Shown here: positions 18,422-64,000 of the stretch, one piece after another | How positions within the stretch are numbered: position 1 is the stretch's first letter | Layout of the letters: the number at the start of each line of letters is the position of its first letter | Notes under the pieces: generated by a model | The model's database searches: none | What the model was told of the DNA's origin: nothing | What the model saw: the letters and a program-made list of their open reading frames with translations, nothing else | Source of the DNA: a virus | Taxonomy: Duplodnaviria > Caudoviricetes | DNA length: 64,000 nt | IMG/VR virus record: IMGVR_UViG_2772190661_000001 | Location: 63,706-127,705 of that record | Direction: 5' to 3' (one strand) | Program-made: the position numbers and the translations under genes

Positions 18422-18891
18422 GAGGTCTCCTCGGTGAGGTCGCCGGGCTGGCCGGCGGAGCTGGTGTCGGTGGCGCCGAGCTGTGCGAGCACCTGGTGCT
18501 CGATGTCGGCGGGCAGCGTCCACAGGCCGAGCGCGCCGCGGGCGGCGATCGGCTCCGGGAGCGGCCGGGTGTTGGCGATCTGCCAGTGGTGCGCGCCCGG
18601 GCGGGCCCACATGCCGCACCGGCAGACGACGTACCGATCGGCGCGGGACGCCGAGCACACGCCGACGATCTCGGCGACGGCGATGACGTGCCCGACGGGC
18701 ACGCCCGGCGTCAGGTCGTCGCCGAACAGGGCGGAGACGTGCGGGTCGCGGATGCCGTCGCGGTCGATGCGCAGGCTGGCGTGGATCGCGATCAGCCCGC
18801 GGTGGCTGGTGGACCTGCTGCGGTTCTCGATGTTCTTTTCGCCGCGGATGATGCAGTCCGCCCAAGGCTTCTTGACCGTCAGCGCCTTCAC
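18418..18891 (-). CDS. ASCH domain protein
   Basis: MKALTVKKPWA..I..GEKNIENR...IAIHAS...RGALGLW. Confidence 0.9.
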   Translation of the reverse strand: MKALTVKKPWADCIIRGEKNIENRSRSTSHRGLIAIHASLRIDRDGIRDPHVSALFGDDLTPGVPVGHVIAVAEIVGVCSASRADRYVVCRCGMWARPGAHHWQIANTRPLPEPIAARGALGLWTLPADIEHQVLAQLGATDTSSAGQPGDLTEETS

Positions 18892-19604
18892 AGGGCACCG
18901 ACCGTGATTACGTCGGCCCCGTGCGGGAGTTGCTCGTCGCGGTGCGCGCCTGCGGTCGGGACCTTGCAGACGAGGCAGTGCCGGCGTACGTCTGGGAGCG
19001 GCCGTCCGGCGAGCGCGGCCTCGACCTCGGCGTTGAGGACGTCACCGACGGGCAGGCCGCAGCCGTTGCAGGCGCGCTTGGCGGTGATCCGCCGGTCCTC
19101 GGCTACATCAACGGGCAGGTCCGGGGACCAGGTGCGGGTCGGGTGGAGCTGCGACAGGTCGACGATGACGAGGGTCAGCGACCCGACCGGCTTGGAGATC
19201 GACCCAAGATGCGGGTACGGCCCGTCGAGGTGAGTTGGGTTGTCGTCCGGGATCATGCCGATGCCGGGCGCGTGGGCGGGCTTCTTCCCGCCGCGGACGA
19301 ACGCCGGCCCGAGCGCGTCCACGGACGGCTTGGCGGCATCGGTCCAGTTCCCGAGGATGTCCCGGCCGCGGTTCGTCGTCGGCCGGATGATCGCGTCGAC
19401 CCGGATGCGGTGCAGCCCGGTCGGGAGCTTCGCGTACTGGGCGAGCTGGTAGGTCACGTCCCGCCAGGCCTTCGTCACGCGGGCCTTCTCGCGCGAGTGC
19501 CCGCGGACGTTCGCGGTCAGGAACCCGCAGCCGGGGTCGTTGACGGTGATGGTCCAGGTGCGCGGGGCCGCGCCGTGGTGCGCGGACCCCGTCTCAATAC
19601 TCAT
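18888..19604 (-). CDS. RusA-like Holliday junction resolvase with C-terminal Zn module
   Basis: RD..N....K..VDAL...IPDD motif pattern. Confidence 0.65.
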   Translation of the reverse strand: MSIETGSAHHGAAPRTWTITVNDPGCGFLTANVRGHSREKARVTKAWRDVTYQLAQYAKLPTGLHRIRVDAIIRPTTNRGRDILGNWTDAAKPSVDALGPAFVRGGKKPAHAPGIGMIPDDNPTHLDGPYPHLGSISKPVGSLTLVIVDLSQLHPTRTWSPDLPVDVAEDRRITAKRACNGCGLPVGDVLNAEVEAALAGRPLPDVRRHCLVCKVPTAGAHRDEQLPHGADVITVGAL

Positions 19605-23194: not shown

Positions 23195-23628
23195 GCCGCC
23201 ACCTCCTGGGTGTCGGCGGTCCACGGGCCGGCGTGCACACTGCGAGACACGGCGACCACGCCCGGGATCAGAACGGCCAAGTCACGTGCGGCCCGCTCGT
23301 CCTGCTGCGGCCGAACGACGCCGTTCGGGAAGATGGCCGCCCACTCGACCTGGGTGGTCGAGCCGTTCGGGGTGGGCGTCGCGGCCCAGCCCTTCGGGAT
23401 CGCGGACAGCTGCAGGCCGACGGCGGCGAGTGCGGCCCGTAGGTCCTGGATGGAGGCGCGGCGCTCGCCGGCCTCGTGGGAGCGGTGCGTCGGGGCGAGC
23501 TTGCCGATCATCGCGGCGAACTTGTTGATGGACAGGCCGCGGGCTTCGCGCTGCTCGGCGACGAGGCGCCAGAGCGGGTCGGGCCCGGTGATATTGGTGG
23601 TTGTCGGTGTAGTCTGCTCAGCGAGCAT
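23191..23628 (-). CDS. XRE-family HTH protein
   Basis: REARGLSINKFAAMIG...HEAGERR. Confidence 0.75.
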   Translation of the reverse strand: MLAEQTTPTTTNITGPDPLWRLVAEQREARGLSINKFAAMIGKLAPTHRSHEAGERRASIQDLRAALAAVGLQLSAIPKGWAATPTPNGSTTQVEWAAIFPNGVVRPQQDERAARDLAVLIPGVVAVSRSVHAGPWTADTQEVAA

Positions 23629-23699
23629 CTCGGCGTCCTCTCAGGTGGACGGTTGAGCTGTGAAGCCCTGGCCGGTCGGACGGCCGGGGCTTCCTTGCG

Positions 23700-24035
23700 T
23701 TAAGCCGTGGCGACGCGCTTGGCGCGGCTACGGCCGCGGGTGCGCATGCCGGCGGCGACCTGGCGCATGGTGTTGCTGTCCGCGATCCGCTTCGCTTCCG
23801 CGGCGTTGGCCGCTTCGGTCGCCTGCCGGGTGTAGGCCTCGGCAGCCTTGTAGATCTGCTCGCGGGTCATGCCGTACGTGCCCTTGCGGTTTACGTGGTC
23901 GATGCGGCCGGCCTTGCACTCGTCCATGACGGAGCGGACGGTCCAGCCGGTTAGGTACTCGACCTGTTCCAGGGTGTAGACGAACGGGTCCGGGGCGCCG
24001 GGGATGAATAGCGGCTGCTCGATGACGTCGGTCAT
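23700..24035 (-). CDS. Excisionase-like HTH protein
   Basis: YTLEQVEYLTGWTVRSV...GRIDHV; second gene of the early operon. Confidence 0.65.
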   Translation of the reverse strand: MTDVIEQPLFIPGAPDPFVYTLEQVEYLTGWTVRSVMDECKAGRIDHVNRKGTYGMTREQIYKAAEAYTRQATEAANAAEAKRIADSNTMRQVAAGMRTRGRSRAKRVATA

Positions 24036-24274
24036 GCCGCGGCCGCCGTCGGCCCGGCCTTGAGGAGGTCGTCGTAGCTGACGCCGAGGGCGTCGGTGAT
24101 GCGGCCGTAGGTCGCGGGCTTCACGGTGGGCCGCTGGCCGCGTTCGATCTGCGCGACGTAGGAGACGGACAGGCCGATCGTGTCGGCGAGCTGGGTGATC
24201 GTGAGGCGCTTCCGCTGGCGCTGTTGGCGCATCTTCGCCCCGTCGACGCGGGGGCTGGCGTGCATGGGCTCCAT
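24032..24274 (-). CDS. Cro-like XRE HTH regulator
   Basis: RQRKRLTITQLADTIGLSVSYVAQIERG; first gene of the early operon. Confidence 0.85.
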   Translation of the reverse strand: MEPMHASPRVDGAKMRQQRQRKRLTITQLADTIGLSVSYVAQIERGQRPTVKPATYGRITDALGVSYDDLLKAGPTAAAA

Positions 24275-24282
24275 GAAGCAGA

Positions 24283-24311
24283 AGCGTACAGGATTGAGCA
24301 GGATTGAGCAG
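24283..24311 (-). promoter_or_regulatory. Early promoter -10 (TACGCT) with tandem 10-bp operator-like repeat
   Basis: CAGGATTGAG x2 (24289-24308) adjoining TACGCT, 8 nt before the cro ATG (near-leaderless). Confidence 0.5.
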
Positions 24312-24398
24312 CACTTGTCGCCAGCCTGTCGCCCGAGCGTGTTGCGGCCGGCCGCGCGCTGCAGTCAGGCAGCTCTGCGCAGCAGAAACCAGGGCAGC

Positions 24399-24463
24399 AA
24401 AAAACGCCGTGCCCCCACGGTGCCCCTAGAGTTTCTAGGAGCCCCATGAGGGCACGGCGTTTT
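24399..24463 (-). terminator. Long intrinsic terminator after tRNA-Arg
   Basis: 30-bp arms with 3 G-U pairs and 1 mismatch in the minus-strand RNA, ending in a U-tract. Confidence 0.8.
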
Positions 24464-24469
24464 AGCAGG

Positions 24470-24542
24470 TGCCTCTGGAGAGATTCGAACTCCCGACACC
24501 CGGATCCGTAATCCGGTGCTCTATCCGCTGAGCTACAGAGGC
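24470..24542 (-). tRNA. tRNA-Arg(ACG)
   Basis: GCCTCTG acceptor, CCGGA-TT-ACG-GA-TCCGG, GTTCGAA T-loop; no encoded CCA. Confidence 0.95.
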
Positions 24543-24543
24543 G

Positions 24544-24637
24544 TGGAGGAGAGTGAGGGATTCGAACCCTCGGCGGAGGTGTTCGCCCCCGCTACGGTGT
24601 AGCAAACCGCTGCCTTGGACCGCTCGGCCAACTCTCC
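24544..24637 (-). tRNA. tRNA-Ser(GCT)
   Basis: GGAGAGT acceptor, GCGGT-TT-GCT-AC-ACCGT, long variable arm, encoded CCA. Confidence 0.93.
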
Positions 24638-24654
24638 TTGCATTGCGAGAAACG

Positions 24655-24726
24655 CTGCGGGCGGAGGATTCGAACCTCCATCGTCCGGGTCAGAGCCGGA
24701 TGTGCTGCCGGTTGCACCAGCCCGCA
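24655..24726 (-). tRNA. tRNA-Gln(CTG)
   Basis: U1-A72, TCCGG-CT-CTG-AC-CCGGA. Confidence 0.9.
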
Positions 24727-24765
24727 CCGGGGCGTCCCGGGCCGTGATCGACACGGCCCGGGACG

Positions 24766-25203
24766 TCACAGGGCCATTGCCGCCCAGGTGGGGGCGACCG
24801 GCCGGAATCGCAGGGGCATGCGCGCCTCGACAGGCGTGCGGTCACCCTTGCGCTGGTTACAGGCGCCGCACGCGGCGGCCGTGTTCGCCCATGAGTTGCG
24901 GCCGCCGCGCGAGCGGGGCATCACGTGGTCGATCGTCGAGGCGTGGCCGCCGCAGTAGACGCAGCGACGGCCGTCCCGGACCAGCACGCCGGCCCGCGAC
25001 CAGCCGGGGCCACGCGAGTGCCGCCAGCGCGTCACCACGTAGCTGACCAGCCGCACCACGGTCGGCACCGGCCAGACGCCTATCTGCGAGTCGGGGTGCG
25101 ACTCGTGAACCTCCGCCACGCGGCGCACCAGCATCCGCACCGCGTGGCGGAGACTGACCCGGTGCAACGGGCCGAGGTCGGCGTTCAGCACCAGCACGTC
25201 CAC
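24766..25203 (-). CDS. HNH endonuclease within the tRNA operon
   Basis: VLVLNA N-terminus; RDGRRCVYCG...TIDHVMPRSRGG.NSWAN...C..CN..K. Confidence 0.95.
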   Translation of the reverse strand: MDVLVLNADLGPLHRVSLRHAVRMLVRRVAEVHESHPDSQIGVWPVPTVVRLVSYVVTRWRHSRGPGWSRAGVLVRDGRRCVYCGGHASTIDHVMPRSRGGRNSWANTAAACGACNQRKGDRTPVEARMPLRFRPVAPTWAAMAL

Positions 25204-25236
25204 CGGATCCTCCTTTCATGGGTTTGTCGAGGTGAG

Positions 25237-25307
25237 AGCGGTTACGGGGAGTCGAACCCCGGTCTGCTGCATGGCAAGCAGCCGCACTGCCGTTGTGCTA
25301 CAACCGC
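25237..25307 (-). tRNA. tRNA-Gly(GCC)
   Basis: GCGGTTG acceptor, GCTGC-TT-GCC-AT-GCAGC, U73. Confidence 0.92.
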
Positions 25308-25311
25308 ATCG

Positions 25312-25386
25312 TCGGGATGCCCGGATTCGAACCGGGGGCCTTCCGCTCCCAAAGCGGACGCGCTGACCAAGCTGCGCCACATCCCG
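25312..25386 (-). tRNA. tRNA-Pro(TGG)
   Basis: CGGGATG acceptor, TCCGC-TT-TGG-GA-GCGGA, A73. Confidence 0.94.
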
Positions 25387-25454
25387 TACTTAACCATCCG
25401 CTATGGAATTCTCAATCATCATTTCCGTGCGCATAAAATGCGCAGGACAAAGCG

Positions 25455-25527
25455 CACGGGCGGCAGGAGTCGAACCCGCAACCTACGGTTTTGGAGGCCG
25501 TTGCTCTACCAGTTGAGCTACACCCGT
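25455..25527 (-). tRNA. tRNA-Trp(CCA)
   Basis: ACGGGTG acceptor, ACGGC-CT-CCA-AA-ACCGT, G73. Confidence 0.92.
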
Positions 25528-25537
25528 ATGGGATACG

Positions 25538-25571
25538 AAAAACCGCCCGGTCCGATGTCGGACTCAGGCGG
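25538..25571 (-). terminator. Attenuator-type intrinsic terminator upstream of the first tRNA
   Basis: CCGCCTG-A-GTCCG-ACAT-CGGAC-CGGGCGG-TTTTT, 10 nt before tRNA-Trp. Confidence 0.8.
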
Positions 25572-25593
25572 CGCGTCTAGCCGGGTAGGCGTA

Positions 25594-25695
25594 CTACCCC
25601 AGGCGGCGCCGCTTGTCGGGACCTCGGACGGATGAACTCGGCTGCAGGCGCCAGGCAACACTCTTCGCCATTACTACGTTCTTCGACATCGCCAT
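25594..25695 (-). CDS. 33-aa leader peptide (uORF)
   Basis: AAGGAGG RBS then MAMSKNVVMAKSVAWRLQPSSSVRGPDKRRRLG*, ending 22 nt before the terminator stem. Confidence 0.65.
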   Translation of the reverse strand: MAMSKNVVMAKSVAWRLQPSSSVRGPDKRRRLG

Positions 25696-25736
25696 CGCCT
25701 CCTTCGTTTCGTCCGTCTCGCTCGGTGCTGGAATAC

Positions 25737-25774
25737 ACGTTAGTGACCCCGCACAACACGCACAACCAATTAAA
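25737..25774 (-). promoter_or_regulatory. SigA/HrdB promoter with upstream AT tract (WhiB7/WblC-like)
   Basis: TTTAATT-GG-TTGTGC-N17-TAACGT on the minus strand. Confidence 0.6.
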
Positions 25775-25827
25775 CGCGATTCCCACGGTACGCCCGCGGG
25801 AGCACCCGACAATCGCTGGTAGGGTGC

Positions 25828-26394
25828 GTGATCATGCGGCTCGGGAAGCAGATGCGCGCCCGCCGGAGCAGTGAGCTCGCGGCCCTGCGCGCCGAGGTCG
25901 CCGCGCTCCGCGCCGAGGTGGCGGCGCTCCGCCCGTCCCCGCCGCCGCCCGCCGACGACCTCGCACAGGATTACCGCACCTGGCGGGACGGCCCGCTGCT
26001 CCGGCTCGCGAAGGTGCTCACCCGCCGCGCCGGGTCCGACGCGCCCGCACCGGCCCGCGGCGCCGCGATGCACGCGCTCTGCCGGGTGCTCCTGACCCCG
26101 GCCACCGACGCGGAGACCCGGCACCGCCTGGTCGGCGACACCGTCACCGACCTGCTGGGCGACACCTCGTGGCGCAACGACGCGGCGCTCGTCCGTACCC
26201 TCATCGAGGCTCGTGACGGCGCCACACCGCTGCGCGACGCCGTCGCCGTGCACGAGTGGCTCTGGCCGGCCGGGGGCGTCGCGCTCGACCCGGCCCGGCA
26301 CGACATCCTGCCCGGCTCCGAGGGCGGCCGCGTCGTCGCGACCGCCGCCCCGGGCCTCCGTGGTGCCGTGTTACCGCTCGTCGTGGCCGGGTGA
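25828..26394 (+). CDS. Hypothetical protein with GrpE-like C-terminus
   Basis: N-terminal coiled coil; G..LDPARHD...GRVV....PGL...VL..V resembles the GrpE beta domain. Confidence 0.5.
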   Translation: MIMRLGKQMRARRSSELAALRAEVAALRAEVAALRPSPPPPADDLAQDYRTWRDGPLLRLAKVLTRRAGSDAPAPARGAAMHALCRVLLTPATDAETRHRLVGDTVTDLLGDTSWRNDAALVRTLIEARDGATPLRDAVAVHEWLWPAGGVALDPARHDILPGSEGGRVVATAAPGLRGAVLPLVVAG

Positions 26395-26398
26395 GCCG

Positions 26399-28348
26399 CT
26401 ACTGCTGATCCATGGTGGCGATCGCGAGACCGTTACCGAACGTGACCGACCACACCTGAGACCGCTCGGCATCCGACGGATCGGCCATGTCGGCCGCGAA
26501 GTCGTTGAGCGCGTAGGGGCCGCCGTTGATCGTGCGGATCTCGGCCTCCTCCGCGGGCGCGATCCACAGCGGACCCAGCCCGTCGCTGTTGCCCGCGTTC
26601 TTGTCCGCCGCCTCGCGGATCCGGAGCTTGAGGTGGCCGCCGGCCGTGCTCGCGGAGTCGACGACCATCAGGAACGGGCCGGGCCCGCTGTAGTCGGTGC
26701 CGGGCAGCTCCAGGTACGCGTCCGGGTCGTCCGGGTTGGCCTCCTTGACGGCCTGCACCACGCGCGGGTCGAGCGGCTCGCCCCGGTTGTTCCGCGGGCC
26801 GGTGCCGACCGGCGTGGCGCTGGGGGTGGCGGCGGGCGTGTTCGACGGAGCGCCGCTGGTCGGGCCGTTCTGCGGCGACCCGATCTTCTCGTCGCCACGG
26901 TTCCCGTAGGCGACATATCCGGCGCCCGCCGCGGCCAGCACCAGCAGGATCACCAGCGCGACCGGCCAGCGGCGCTTCTTCCTCGGCGGCGGACCGGCCG
27001 GCACCGCCGCGGCCCCGGTCGCCCTGCGCCCCGGCCTGCCCGGCACCTCGAACTGCGAGTACGGCCGCGTCGGCGCGAGCCCGTCGTCGGCCTGCGGGGC
27101 CCGCGACGGCACCGGCTGGGCCGGCGCACCGCGCGGGGGTGTCAACGGCGCCATAGTGACCGGCGGGGCGTGCAGCACGTTCGCCAGGCCCGGACCGGAC
27201 GGCGACGCCGGATAGGCCGGCGGCGCGGAGACCTGGCCCGCGAGCGCCGCGGCCACCTGCTCCCGCGTCACGCGCGCGGTCCGGTCCGCGTCCAGGCCAC
27301 CCACGGTCTCGGCCGTGACCGCGCCGTTCGCCACCGCCAGCTCCGGCTGCTCGATCACGGCCGGCGCCACGCTCAGCGCGCGGTGCAGCATGGACGCGAC
27401 CAGCGGCACCCGGCTCGCGCCGCCGACCAGCAGCACACCCTTCAGCGCGGACGCCTCCACGCCGGCCTCGCGCAGCACCAGGCGCGTGGTCGCCACCGTA
27501 CGGTCGATCACCGGCCGGGCCAGCGCCTCGAACTGCTCGCGGCCGAGCGGCGCCTCCACCTCCAGCAGCGGCAGGTGGATGTGGGTGGCCGAGGACCGGG
27601 ACAGCATCTCCTTGCCGGTACGCACGTCCGCCCACAGTGCACGCGAGGCCCGCCGGTCCGCCGCGTCGGCCGGCGCGGTCAGGCGCGCCCAGGCCGCCGG
27701 GTCCTTCGGCGCGTACACCGCGCCGAGGTGCGCGACGATCGCCGCGTCCAGGTCCAGGCCACCGCCGTCGGACAGCCCCGACGTGGCCAGCAGTGCGAAA
27801 CCGTCCCCGGTCCGCCGGATCACCGACGCGTCGTACGTGCCCGCGCCCAGGTCACAGACGACCACGCTGCCGCCGACCGGGATCGTGGTCCCGGCCGTGC
27901 TCGCGAAGTACGCCGCCGCCGCGACCGGCTCGCTGACCAGCCGCACGTTGCGCAGGCCCGCACGCGCCGCCGAGTCCAGCAGCACGTCCCGCCGCCGCTT
28001 GCCCCAGGCCGCCGGGTGCGTGATCGTCACCCGGTCCGGCGTGCCCTGCACCTGGTCCGCCACCCGCCGCAGCACGGCCGCGAACATGTCCGGCACCGCC
28101 ACCTCGACGCCCCCGAGCAGCACGGACTGCTCGTCGATGCGCTGCTTCGGGTACGGCTCATAGCTCTCCGGCGCCGTCCGGGCCGCGTGCGCCGCATCCG
28201 GCCCCACCAGCAGCCGGCCGCCCGGATCCGCACAGACCCCCGACGGCAGCGACGGCGCGCCGTCGAACAGCACCGGGCGTACCCCCAGCGGACCATCGAA
28301 CACTGCCACCGTGCTGGAGGTGCCGAAATCTATGCAGAGGTGCGTCAC
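26399..28348 (-). CDS. Hsp70-family ATPase with Pro-rich linker, TM helix and extracytoplasmic domain
   Basis: IDFGTSST, EPVAAA, DLGAGTYD, LVGGASRVP; KKRRWPVALVILLVLAAAG TM. Confidence 0.9.
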   Translation of the reverse strand: MTHLCIDFGTSSTVAVFDGPLGVRPVLFDGAPSLPSGVCADPGGRLLVGPDAAHAARTAPESYEPYPKQRIDEQSVLLGGVEVAVPDMFAAVLRRVADQVQGTPDRVTITHPAAWGKRRRDVLLDSAARAGLRNVRLVSEPVAAAAYFASTAGTTIPVGGSVVVCDLGAGTYDASVIRRTGDGFALLATSGLSDGGGLDLDAAIVAHLGAVYAPKDPAAWARLTAPADAADRRASRALWADVRTGKEMLSRSSATHIHLPLLEVEAPLGREQFEALARPVIDRTVATTRLVLREAGVEASALKGVLLVGGASRVPLVASMLHRALSVAPAVIEQPELAVANGAVTAETVGGLDADRTARVTREQVAAALAGQVSAPPAYPASPSGPGLANVLHAPPVTMAPLTPPRGAPAQPVPSRAPQADDGLAPTRPYSQFEVPGRPGRRATGAAAVPAGPPPRKKRRWPVALVILLVLAAAGAGYVAYGNRGDEKIGSPQNGPTSGAPSNTPAATPSATPVGTGPRNNRGEPLDPRVVQAVKEANPDDPDAYLELPGTDYSGPGPFLMVVDSASTAGGHLKLRIREAADKNAGNSDGLGPLWIAPAEEAEIRTINGGPYALNDFAADMADPSDAERSQVWSVTFGNGLAIATMDQQ

Positions 28349-28750
28349 CGAACCAAGATAGCGGCCCCTCGCCCCACGCGCGTCCCAGGTGGACCGCCCT
28401 CCCCGGCCGTCCCGCAGGTCCTGCACCCACGATCGACTCGTCGCTGACCTGCTGCGACGGCGGCAGCATCCAGCGGGCATGCCCTCGGTGATCGCGGACC
28501 GCCGGTCCGGCACGGTGTCCGCGGTGCCGTAGGCGTGGGTCGGCCTCGCCCGGTCCACCCCGTCAAGATCTTCAAGCACGGACCAGAGCCCTGACCAGGG
28601 GGTACGACATCCCGCCGCGCACCGGCACGCGCGGCAGCAAACGTGAGCGGCGGCGGGAGTCGCGTGCTCTTCGGTGACCAGCGGCGGCACCGGCTCCGAT
28701 CGGGGATCGGAAGCGGAGCGCCAGCGGAGTCTTCCGAACCCCGGAGGTTG

Positions 28751-28872
28751 GCCCGCGGGAGCAACGCTGCGGGACCACGCCGGAAGCGGGCACGTCGTGG
28801 GGTCCGGGGCTCGGGCCCCGGGGAAACACAGCGCCCGCGGGAGCAACGCTGCCGGACCACGCCGGAAGCGGG
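28751..28872. repeat. Two 40-bp direct repeats (1 mismatch) with a 42-bp spacer
   Basis: GCCCGCGGGAGCAACGCTGCSGGACCACGCCGGAAGCGGG at 28751-28790 and 28833-28872. Confidence 0.85.
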
Positions 28873-28880
28873 AAAGCGGC

Positions 28881-29228
28881 CTATCGGGTCTGGATCTTGC
28901 GGCCTCGGGCGCCCAATGGAATCTGAGCGGGGTCGACGGCGACCGAGGTCAGGTTCTTGTAGGCGTAGCCGCGGGAGGTCAGCCACTCGTCGGCGAGGAG
29001 TTCGGCGCGGGTGGCGGTGACGTCGAGGTCCTCGTCGTCGTCGGCCTCGACGAGGTAGCGGAACGTGAAGAACGGGCGGGCGGCCAGGTCGTAGGCGAGG
29101 TGGCCCTCGGGCGTGTAGGCCGTGGTGAGGAAGTCACGGCCGGCGGCGTCGGCGGTCAGGGCCGCGGTCTGCTCCGGGGTCAGTCGGTCGAAGGCGCCAC
29201 GCACGGTCACTCGGATGCCACGGCTCAT
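28881..29228 (-). CDS. DUF6204 family protein
   Basis: [10 protein letters not shown]...[22 protein letters not shown]. Confidence 0.8.
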
Positions 29229-63136: not shown

Positions 63137-64000
63137 ATGGCACGCGCTATCGACCGCAGCGGGGACCCTGACGAGCTCGTGGGCACCCACGAGGCCGCAC
63201 GCGTGCTCGGCTACCCACAGCACAAGGCACTACCACAAGGCCTTCTTGACCGCGCCGACGAGATCGACGACGACGGCCACGTCCTACGGCGCCGGTTCCG
63301 GCGCGCAACGCTGTGGGACTACGCCGACACCGGCCTTGGTGCCGGGACCACCGCCGTCGACGGTCCGGAGCACTTGGACCGACGTGGAGTTGCCGAACGC
63401 GCCGGCGTGCGCGTCGGCGCCGTGGACGTCTGGATCGCTCATCGGTCTACCAATGGCTTCCCGCCCATGACCCGGGACCACGGGTGCGACGCGGACGCTC
63501 TCGACGCGTGGCTTGCACGACGCGCCGAGGAGCGCCGCGGCCTCCTTACCGAGGTCGATTACACCGCCGATCCCGAAGACCTCGTCAGCCAGGCAGGCGT
63601 GGCGCGTATCGCCGGCTACGCGAAAGTCGAGAATCTGCGCGGCTCATCGCTGATCACTGCCCTGGACCAGCGCAACAACCCGGAACATAATCAGCAACTG
63701 CCCAGCGGCCGCATCCGCAAACGCTGGCCGGTCCGCGTCGTCTGGGAAGTCCTGGAGCAGCGGACCGGCCGGACGGGTCGGCCGACCGGTGCGATCGCGG
63801 CCAGCCGTGTCGTCGACCGCAGCGGCGATCCTGACGAATTGGTCGCTGCCGCCGAAGCCGCTCGAGTGCTCGGCTACCCACGTCCCGCCAGCCTGCCTCC
63901 ACGCGTCCTCGACGCCGCAGACGAGGTGACGACCAGTGAGACCGGCAAGGTCACGCGTCGTCGTTGGAAACGATCGACTCTCTGGGGAATCGCCGGCTGA
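63137..64000 (+). CDS. Protein of four tandem Xis/MerR-like winged-HTH modules
   Basis: DRSGDPDELV..EAARVLGY...RRR(F/W).R.TLW twice, plus two diverged modules; start uncertain. Confidence 0.65.
   Translation: MARAIDRSGDPDELVGTHEAARVLGYPQHKALPQGLLDRADEIDDDGHVLRRRFRRATLWDYADTGLGAGTTAVDGPEHLDRRGVAERAGVRVGAVDVWIAHRSTNGFPPMTRDHGCDADALDAWLARRAEERRGLLTEVDYTADPEDLVSQAGVARIAGYAKVENLRGSSLITALDQRNNPEHNQQLPSGRIRKRWPVRVVWEVLEQRTGRTGRPTGAIAASRVVDRSGDPDELVAAAEAARVLGYPRPASLPPRVLDAADEVTTSETGKVTRRRWKRSTLWGIAG

Follow-up and report, generated by a model that had tools for sequence, protein, structure and literature searches.

A codon-matched leader peptide as a probable transcription attenuator of an accessory tRNA operon in Micromonosporaceae

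The regulation of individual bacterial tRNA genes is largely unknown, and the window analysed here, a stretch of 64,000 nucleotides of DNA (IMG/VR record IMGVR_UViG_2772190661_000001, positions 63,706 to 127,705), poses the question directly: does the short open reading frame (ORF) that stands before an operon of six tRNA genes, and that contains codons read by those same tRNAs, control their transcription? A sequence-only reading of the locus had proposed the ORF as a leader peptide acting as a multi-tRNA analogue of amino-acid attenuation. That proposal is supported by a covariation of leader codons with array content that is specific to the reading frame and appears in two sets of loci, while the step from ribosome stalling to read-through is one that we infer. 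We put the probability that a ribosome-mediated leader-peptide transcription attenuator gates this accessory tRNA operon at roughly three in four. The anatomy of the leader is conserved in about 150 arrays, its codons match the array in one frame, and its terminator is conserved; dependence on the ribosome is predicted from the sequence. Full-text literature searches found no published leader-peptide or attenuator control of tRNA arrays.

The ORF from 25695 to 25594 of the minus strand translates to a 33-residue peptide. The AAGGAGG preceding it lies just 2 nt from the first ATG (25695) and 8 nt from the second (25689), and since this spacing suits the second and not the first, the leader probably has 31 codons. 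The leader and its signals are, in the order of transcription:

25769..25774, minus strand: AT-rich hexamer TTTAAT, 3 nt 5' of the -35, in the layout of a WhiB7/WblC-dependent promoter
25760..25765, minus strand: -35-like hexamer TTGTGC, 17 nt from the -10-like hexamer
25737..25742, minus strand: -10-like hexamer TAACGT (TAnnnT), read from the sequence and by comparison
25698..25704, minus strand: Shine-Dalgarno sequence AAGGAGG, read from the sequence
25594..25689, minus strand: leader ORF, 31 codons and the stop codon (a start at 25695 would give 33 codons)
25606..25612, minus strand: 5' strand of the predicted antiterminator, GCGGCGC, inside the Lys-Arg-Arg-Arg codons; pairs with 25574..25568
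25580..25604, minus strand: hairpin P1 around the stop codon TAG (25596..25594), nested within the predicted antiterminator
25574..25568, minus strand: 3' strand of the predicted antiterminator, made up of the terminator 5' arm and 3 nt upstream of it
25571..25543, minus strand: GC-rich intrinsic terminator hairpin (element 25543..25574)
25538..25542, minus strand: terminator T-run of five T, 10 nt before tRNA-Trp

The promoter and the terminator were defined by comparison with homologues. A scan for the sigma-70 consensus listed no promoter, the -35 departing from TTGACA, and the same scan missed the main terminator, as its hairpin has an internal loop; when a 48-nt stretch is folded, the terminator gives -25.4 kcal/mol.

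A DNA search of 400 Micromonosporaceae genomes recovered the leader and tRNA-Trp region in all five genomes of the same genus, and many arrays of other genera likewise begin with tRNA-Trp and have about 25 nt before it in common. Eighty homologous loci were fetched as a first set. In 78 of them a ribosome-binding site and an ORF lie upstream of tRNA-Trp, the ORF mostly of 30-49 codons (mode 43-44), with an early Trp codon (M-x-W-Q/T) and an end that is usually (G/E)-R-W-x-G; 3' of it come a stop-codon hairpin, whose sequences differ, a terminator with the base (G)CCGCCC...GGGCGG(C), and a T-run that in most homologues is 8-25 nt from tRNA-Trp. Eleven leaders of this set were picked by hand through family resemblance, blind to array content. 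As many as 35 of the 78 leaders are 43 or 44 codons long though the peptide sequence is not conserved, and their GC3 is 0.80; so tight a length hints that the start codon has to keep a certain distance, or a certain timing, relative to the terminator.

This anatomy bears on the simplest alternative, that the small ORF is a stand-alone protein gene or is untranslated, that the hairpin merely terminates it, and that the tRNAs are transcribed independently. The fold of the whole leader is indeed unexceptional (z = -1.4), as would suit such an arrangement, but the 10-nt gap between the T-run and tRNA-Trp, and the similarly short gaps of the homologues, leave no room for a separate tRNA-Trp promoter. 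Conservation covers the presence of the ORF, its length and its ribosome-binding site, but not the peptide, and an Rfam scan of positions 23500-27000 (E <= 1) returned the six tRNAs and chance matches, with no known leader or riboswitch. We consider this alternative hardly credible.

Because the content of the arrays varies, from 1 to 25 tRNAs in the first set and from 1 to about 36 across all homologous arrays, it can be asked whether the codons of a leader follow the tRNAs behind it. The score used is the share of the tRNAs of an array, Trp left aside, for which a given leader contains a cognate codon, and 76 of the 78 arrays (at least two tRNAs, all anticodons called) were scored. Leaders cover their own arrays at 0.931, against 0.714 for the leaders of other clusters, and 40 of the 41 leader clusters are positive. 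With cluster representatives the observed coverage is 0.927 and the permuted coverage 0.741 +/- 0.024; none of the 5000 permutations reaches the observed value. In the two wrong frames, own and other coverage do not differ (0.60 versus 0.61 and 0.65 versus 0.64). The co-variation of leader codons with tRNA content across homologous arrays, which the sequence-only reading had set as a comparison against shuffled controls, is thus present.

The same contrast is visible for single tRNAs. Tyr codons occur in all 13 leaders of arrays with tRNA-Tyr and in 11 of 64 of those without, His codons in 23/23 versus 30/54, Asn codons in 16/16 versus 29/61, and Cys codons in 9/9 versus 26/68; the figures are 15/19 versus 10/58 for Lys-CTT, 16/18 versus 19/59 for Ile and 44/45 versus 17/32 for Ser-GCT, and Asp shows a similar contrast. 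Arrays of Trp and Asp follow leaders with five or six Asp codons, and a 13-codon leader consisting of Met, Arg, Ala, Leu and Trp alone sits before an Arg-Leu-Ala-Met array. Matching extends to the synonymous level, where the share of codons readable by the isoacceptor is 0.731 for a leader's own array and 0.672 for others (p = 1e-4, cluster level). In 33 independent sister pairs, possession of a given tRNA more often goes with a larger number of its codons in the leader (78 versus 42, p = 6e-4); counted by pair, close sister arrays give 17 positive and 10 negative cases, which is not significant.

For replication, a covariance model (R1) was built on 41 aligned stop-to-terminator regions, 100 further R1 matches were fetched, and terminator, leader and array were annotated by script alone; 73 had both a leader and tRNAs. 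Coverage in this set is 0.908 for own and 0.736 for other arrays, with 52 of 55 clusters positive, no permutation reaching the observed value and the wrong frames again flat. The 40 replication arrays that are not led by tRNA-Trp score 0.90 versus 0.67, and a Trp codon before the last five codons is found in 32 of the 33 Trp-led leaders as against 17 of the 40 others (p = 3e-7). By position within the leader, array-specific matching across the family vanishes in the last five codons (ratio 1.06) and peaks at codons -6 to -15 (1.4-1.5). Leader codons and array tRNAs do not follow a common order (mean Kendall tau 0.01, n = 34).

A match of this kind might be a by-product of shared ancestry, or of a codon or amino-acid bias of mobile elements, with no sensing at all. 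The arrays are patchy in distribution, often present in several copies per genome, and carry an HNH gene; five IMG/VR viral contigs have the terminator-tRNA-Trp pattern; and close relatives share leader and array alike, recent array changes being unmirrored in the leader. Common descent would indeed inflate significance, but it cannot lift own above other coverage unless leader and array were matched originally, and it has to be set against the near uniformity of the clusters in both sets (40/41 and 52/55). A bias running through a whole element cannot explain the presence or absence of a single amino acid in a peptide of about 43 codons, for which the Tyr counts are the plainest case, and it leaves unexplained the five to six Asp codons before Trp and Asp arrays and the 13-codon leader of five amino acids. 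The locus is, moreover, chromosomal and syntenic in the genus of the window. We therefore hold this explanation to be very unlikely and retain that of a codon-matched attenuator.

The matched codons are also of a particular kind. Where an NNY codon is read by a G34 tRNA of the same array, it ends in T in 30.2% of cases, compared with 15.8% for NNY codons that the array does not serve and 6.4% in genes (odds ratio 2.3). The leader of the window can be read against its own operon, which consists of:

25454..25527, minus strand: tRNA-Trp (CCA), first gene of the array (ARAGORN and Rfam)
25311..25386, minus strand: tRNA-Pro (TGG) (ARAGORN and Rfam)
25236..25307, minus strand: tRNA-Gly (GCC) (ARAGORN and Rfam)
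24766..25203, minus strand: HNH endonuclease gene (Pfam HNH_5/HNH) with its own AAGGAGG site, between tRNA-Gly and tRNA-Gln
24654..24726, minus strand: tRNA-Gln (CTG) (ARAGORN and Rfam)
24544..24637, minus strand: tRNA-Ser (GCT) (ARAGORN and Rfam)
24468..24542, minus strand: tRNA-Arg (ACG); its 3' 45 nt (24469-24513) are one copy of an attachment-site repeat

Codons 12-25 of the ORF, and the CGG CGC CGC run before its stop, are present as the sequence-only reading had listed them, and with the ARAGORN anticodons and standard wobble each of the six tRNAs does have at least one cognate: TGG for Trp-CCA, CCG for Pro-TGG, GGT for Gly-GCC, CAG for Gln-CTG, AGT twice for Ser-GCT, and CGC three times plus CGA for Arg-ACG. 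The rarity attributed to AGT, CGA and GGT is real, as they make up 2.2% of Ser, 3.2% of Arg and 8.9% of Gly codons in the long genes of the genome, where GTA and GTT are about 2% each of Val codons; together with TCA, these five codons account for 2-9% of their synonymous sets in the genome's genes.

The operon is not in its original state. An exact 45-bp direct repeat of the 3' end of tRNA-Arg(ACG) occurs at 24469-24513 of the window and, on the same strand, at 312341-312385 of contig C4, outside the window and about 92 kb upstream of the window copy; directly adjoining the far repeat, and beyond it, are tRNA-Pro(GGG), tRNA-Val(GAC), tRNA-Val(CAC) and tRNA-His(GTG). From the repeat and these distal tRNAs we conclude that the operon once held ten tRNAs and was split by an integrative element of about 92 kb in tRNA-Arg. 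The undivided form is still present in relatives of the same genus. The claim that the leader has codons for all six downstream tRNAs is accordingly true of the operon as it now stands, which is a truncation of one with ten.

Downstream of the ORF, the terminator is conserved as a structure. In an alignment of 41 leaders 91.8% of cells pair, compared with 28-56% in slid controls, and 6 of the 11 pairs have changed on both sides. When the 3' arm is withheld from the fold, the last leader codons, nine at most, form a helix with the terminator 5' arm that has the stop-codon hairpin nested inside it, in the window and in 66-70 of 72 homologous arrays. The codon run near the stop, which had been counted among the sensing codons, does not belong there: it falls on the 5' strand of the predicted antiterminator, and the last five codons of the family show no array-specific matching, so that the run is structural and not a sensor. 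The absence of matching in the last codons and its peak at -6 to -15 fit a ribosome that has to stop short of the antiterminator, and on the strength of these modelled folds the antiterminator would be the element that switches.

We propose that the attenuator would work as follows. Transcription would start at the promoter of WhiB7/WblC layout, and the transcript would first encode the 31-codon leader, whose last codons, enclosing the stop-codon hairpin, would pair with the terminator 5' arm as the antiterminator. On arriving at the stop codon, a ribosome would cover and melt this helix, letting the terminator form and keeping the tRNAs off; a ribosome held earlier in the leader would leave the antiterminator in place, and RNA polymerase would read into the array. 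With the leader written in codons of the array's own tRNAs, preferentially the rare, wobble-read ones ending in T, slow decoding of any matched codon would lead to synthesis of tRNAs able to relieve the slowdown, and their build-up would shut the operon again in a negative feedback. The preference for wobble-read codons would sharpen the sensitivity to tRNA supply. The natural trigger could be loss of tRNA (e.g. to tRNA-cutting toxins), ribosome-targeting antibiotics or starvation.

The promoter raises the question of whether codon matching is needed for such a response. The layout of AT-rich hexamer, N3, TTGnnn, 17-18 nt and TAnnnT is found in 62 of 78 leaders, with the -10-like hexamer 34-70 nt upstream of the leader start codon and its position kept in homologues. 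The WblC motif sits 3 nt upstream of the -35 (PMC7157823), some homologue hexamers read GAAAAT, consistent with the published GAAAWY, and the S. coelicolor WblC regulon includes six tRNA genes that are directly activated (PMC7157823). By their layout, the array promoters may depend on WhiB7. The genome of the window has a whiB7 homologue with a C-terminal AT-hook (contig C10, about 154460-155400), preceded by a long leader in which about 30 nt separate the end of an ORF from an intrinsic terminator; this is probably the customary attenuator of whiB7. We rejected the possibility that the array leader is a copy of it, as the whiB7 leader, which contains a long ORF and a terminator of its own, shows no homology to that of the array.

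It could thus be argued that the array leader is a general attenuator for translation stress or antibiotics, like the whiB7 or erm leaders, in which any slowdown, or a drug-dependent arrest at the early Trp or the C-terminal Arg-Trp motifs, gives read-through and the other codons are irrelevant. In keeping with this, the promoter layout is of the WhiB7 type, conservation extends to leader length and to the peptide motifs at both termini, the accessory tRNA arrays of Anabaena are induced by ribosome-targeting drugs (PMC8421152), and the switch as proposed would answer any stall. A general sensor does not, however, predict leader codons that track array content, in frame only and in two sets, nor an excess of wobble codons precisely where the array serves them, and the C-terminal motif is explained by its pairing with the terminator arm. 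We judge it unlikely as the whole explanation. The two readings are not exclusive, and general stress sensing probably operates alongside codon matching.

Several observations weigh against a codon-matched attenuator. Starvation for amino acids is one more condition that would hold ribosomes up in the leader, yet extra tRNA would be no help against it. Of the leader codons, about half have no reader among the array's own tRNAs, and in the window the leader serves 8 of the 10 ancestral tRNAs, having no GTG and no His codon. For this leader by itself, coverage of all six tRNAs arises by chance in 3.9% of random 30-codon draws with the codon usage of the genome and in 3.5% of 3,881 mechanical ATG-ORFs of 28-36 codons, so that the enrichment over random ORFs on which the sequence-only reading would stand or fall is, at p ~0.04 and tested after the fact, suggestive in the window alone. 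Where two sister arrays have almost the same leader, their differences in tRNA content are not matched in it, from which it follows that the leader adapts slowly. Related arrays are not independent, and the p-values consequently overstate the case, the effect size and the replication being the stronger evidence. The wobble rules and ARAGORN anticodon calls are approximate, and CAT may denote initiator Met, elongator Met or Ile2. As to structure, the core of the antiterminator pairs in 85.8% of cells, but with both strands conserved and almost no covariation, and G-rich shuffles of it pair fairly well too (mean z = -1.6).

Beyond the loci used for these comparisons, R1 matches occur in 104 of 151 genomes of the family and 37 of 52 genera, often two to four per genome; this tally takes in one unpublished genome (G138), which entered no statistic. 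In the genome of the window R1 finds the window leader and a second one on contig C20, where a further attenuator-type array (18551-19128) encodes Leu-GAG, Leu-CAG, Ala-CGC, Tyr-GTA and Cys-GCA and has a counterpart in the same genus (L255). Its leader is 33 codons long, lacks Trp, is rich in Leu and Ala and has Tyr and Cys codons. Matches on contigs C9 and C35 were discarded, being ordinary terminators after protein genes. In 18 other families of the order, the terminator-tRNA-Trp pattern is seen in 1 of about 355 genomes, and outside Micromonosporaceae there are attenuator matches in metagenome-assembled genomes labelled Umezawaea (56 bits) and Amycolatopsis (25 bits, weak) (loci L257 and L334). 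Five predicted viral or proviral IMG/VR contigs of 31-152 kb (L336-L340) have the exact succession of terminator, T-run and tRNA-Trp; they may be phage-borne arrays or, as in this window, prophage predictions that extend over a chromosomal array in which integration took place. Against GenBank phages, blastn gave matches to the tRNAs alone and none to the leader. A search for RNA-seq of the organism of the window returned none. Soil metatranscriptome contigs of at least 80% likeness cover the tRNAs and HNH gene of relatives and not the leader, and one contig of 258 nt spans the HNH start to tRNA-Gly, DNA carry-over being possible in both cases.

The host locus is a Catenuloplanes chromosome (Micromonosporaceae); the genome is about 11 Mb, and the named relatives nearest at the locus are Catenuloplanes, Actinoplanes, Paractinoplanes and other Micromonosporaceae. 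The tRNA-Trp of the array is a second copy, the housekeeping gene being on contig C22. The ~92 kb element takes in positions 1-24468 of the window, with a Cro-like helix-turn-helix (HTH) protein, a zinc-finger protein and RecE/RecT, and the phage-like genes downstream of tRNA-Arg (Cro-type HTH, RecE, RecT) are missing from homologous arrays. That no integrase lies beside the cro-like gene in the window is explained by this repeat-bounded element, whose far end was not searched for an integrase. On the other side of the leader, the divergent upstream gene, at 25828-26394 on the plus strand, is syntenic within the genus and encodes a 188-aa protein with no Pfam or PHROG match; it is followed by genes on the minus strand for an 815-aa protein with an Hsp70/MreB-like ATPase core (26399-28846) and a DUF6204 protein (28881-29228).

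The HNH gene recurs inside 32 of the 80 homologous arrays at 70-95% identity. Some genomes have it right after the same leader and terminator with no tRNA within 6 kb (L170:6031-6471, L214:5940-6377), and in some Couchioplanes, Hamadaea, Pseudosporangium and Nucisporomicrobium loci an attenuator match lies immediately upstream of it (L308, L327, L306 and L290). It looks like a regular cargo of this control unit and not a random homing insert. In two genomes of one genus, an rtcB gene (Pfam RtcB, E = 1e-121), encoding an RNA-repair ligase, is found at L227:5281-6504 (minus strand) and L245:588-1775 (plus strand), behind a short leader that is rich in Arg and Leu and has this same type of stop-codon hairpin and terminator; tRNA genes are absent from the vicinity. 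Attenuators before rtcB and HNH hint, as a lead only, at a response to tRNA damage. A tentative and rather doubtful extension is that Micromonosporaceae possess such a response, in which WhiB7-type, codon-matched attenuators switch on back-up arrays, the HNH nuclease and, in some genomes, RtcB. If so, its trigger would be the loss of particular tRNAs to the anticodon nucleases of competitors, to toxin-antitoxin systems or to phage-defence systems, and each leader could be read as a list of the tRNAs that its array is able to replace.

In the Anabaena array study the findings are presented as the first indications of tRNA gene regulation (PMC8421152); here, classical leader-peptide attenuation appears to have been turned on the tRNAs themselves, with a single short ORF that would monitor as many as about twenty codon families together. 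Accessory arrays would thereby gain a concrete role, providing tRNAs as they are needed when certain codons are read slowly, and would be tied to intrinsic resistance through WhiB7 and perhaps to protection from toxins that cut tRNA. The leaders would constitute a natural library of multi-codon sensors, from which array content is partly predictable, an aid to annotation, and a synthetic reporter of codon-specific translation stress could be built on the same design.

Among known systems, T-box riboswitches likewise sense tRNA supply and place a terminator and antiterminator before translation-related genes, but they bind uncharged tRNA without translation, whereas the sensor here would be a translated ORF; the T-box covariance model had no match in the Rfam scan of 23500-27000. 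Large tRNA arrays, or L-arrays, are said to have been defined by Tran et al. in 2016 as at least 20 tRNA genes at a density of at least two per kb. Some of the homologous arrays only are of this size and density, and the window, with 6 tRNAs now and 10 before the insertion, stays below at least 20. The trn operon of Anabaena sp. PCC 7120, an L-array, has in common with our loci that its tRNAs are supernumerary and horizontally spread (PMC8421152). It is silent in normal growth and induced by translational stress, but its control is ascribed to promoter direct repeats, a putative repressor site, where we find a leader ORF and terminator, and no leader peptide or attenuator is described in that paper (PMC8421152).

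The whiB7/wblC leader shares with the array leader the AT-rich motif 3 nt from the -35, an upstream ORF, an intrinsic terminator and an expected response to impaired translation, but codon matching to downstream tRNAs is no part of the whiB7 model, and the WblC-controlled tRNAs of S. coelicolor are single genes of modest induction with no leader peptide described (PMC7157823). Nearer in principle are the trpS and alaS leaders of Streptomyces (PMC8079986), in which actinobacterial ribosome-mediated attenuation also links the decoding of codons to the supply side; these sense one amino acid and control a protein gene, while here the codons are many and the product is tRNA.

The closest parallel is with the amino-acid attenuators, namely thrL/ilvL of enterobacteria, trpL, hisL, pheL and the actinobacterial ilvB, leuA and trp leaders. 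As in these, a short and presumably translated leader has codons that match the regulated genes, the terminator 5' arm would pair alternatively with a segment covered by the ribosome at the stop codon, and stalling is, here by prediction, to result in read-through. As in thr and ilv, one leader would sense several amino acids. The promoter differs in its WhiB7-type layout. The third, "pause" or 1:2, hairpin of the amino-acid attenuators is not evident here, and we infer that zero translation should therefore give read-through and not super-attenuation. Those systems regulate biosynthetic enzymes and have leaders with runs of one to three amino acids; the leaders described here precede tRNAs and embrace up to about 20 codon families.

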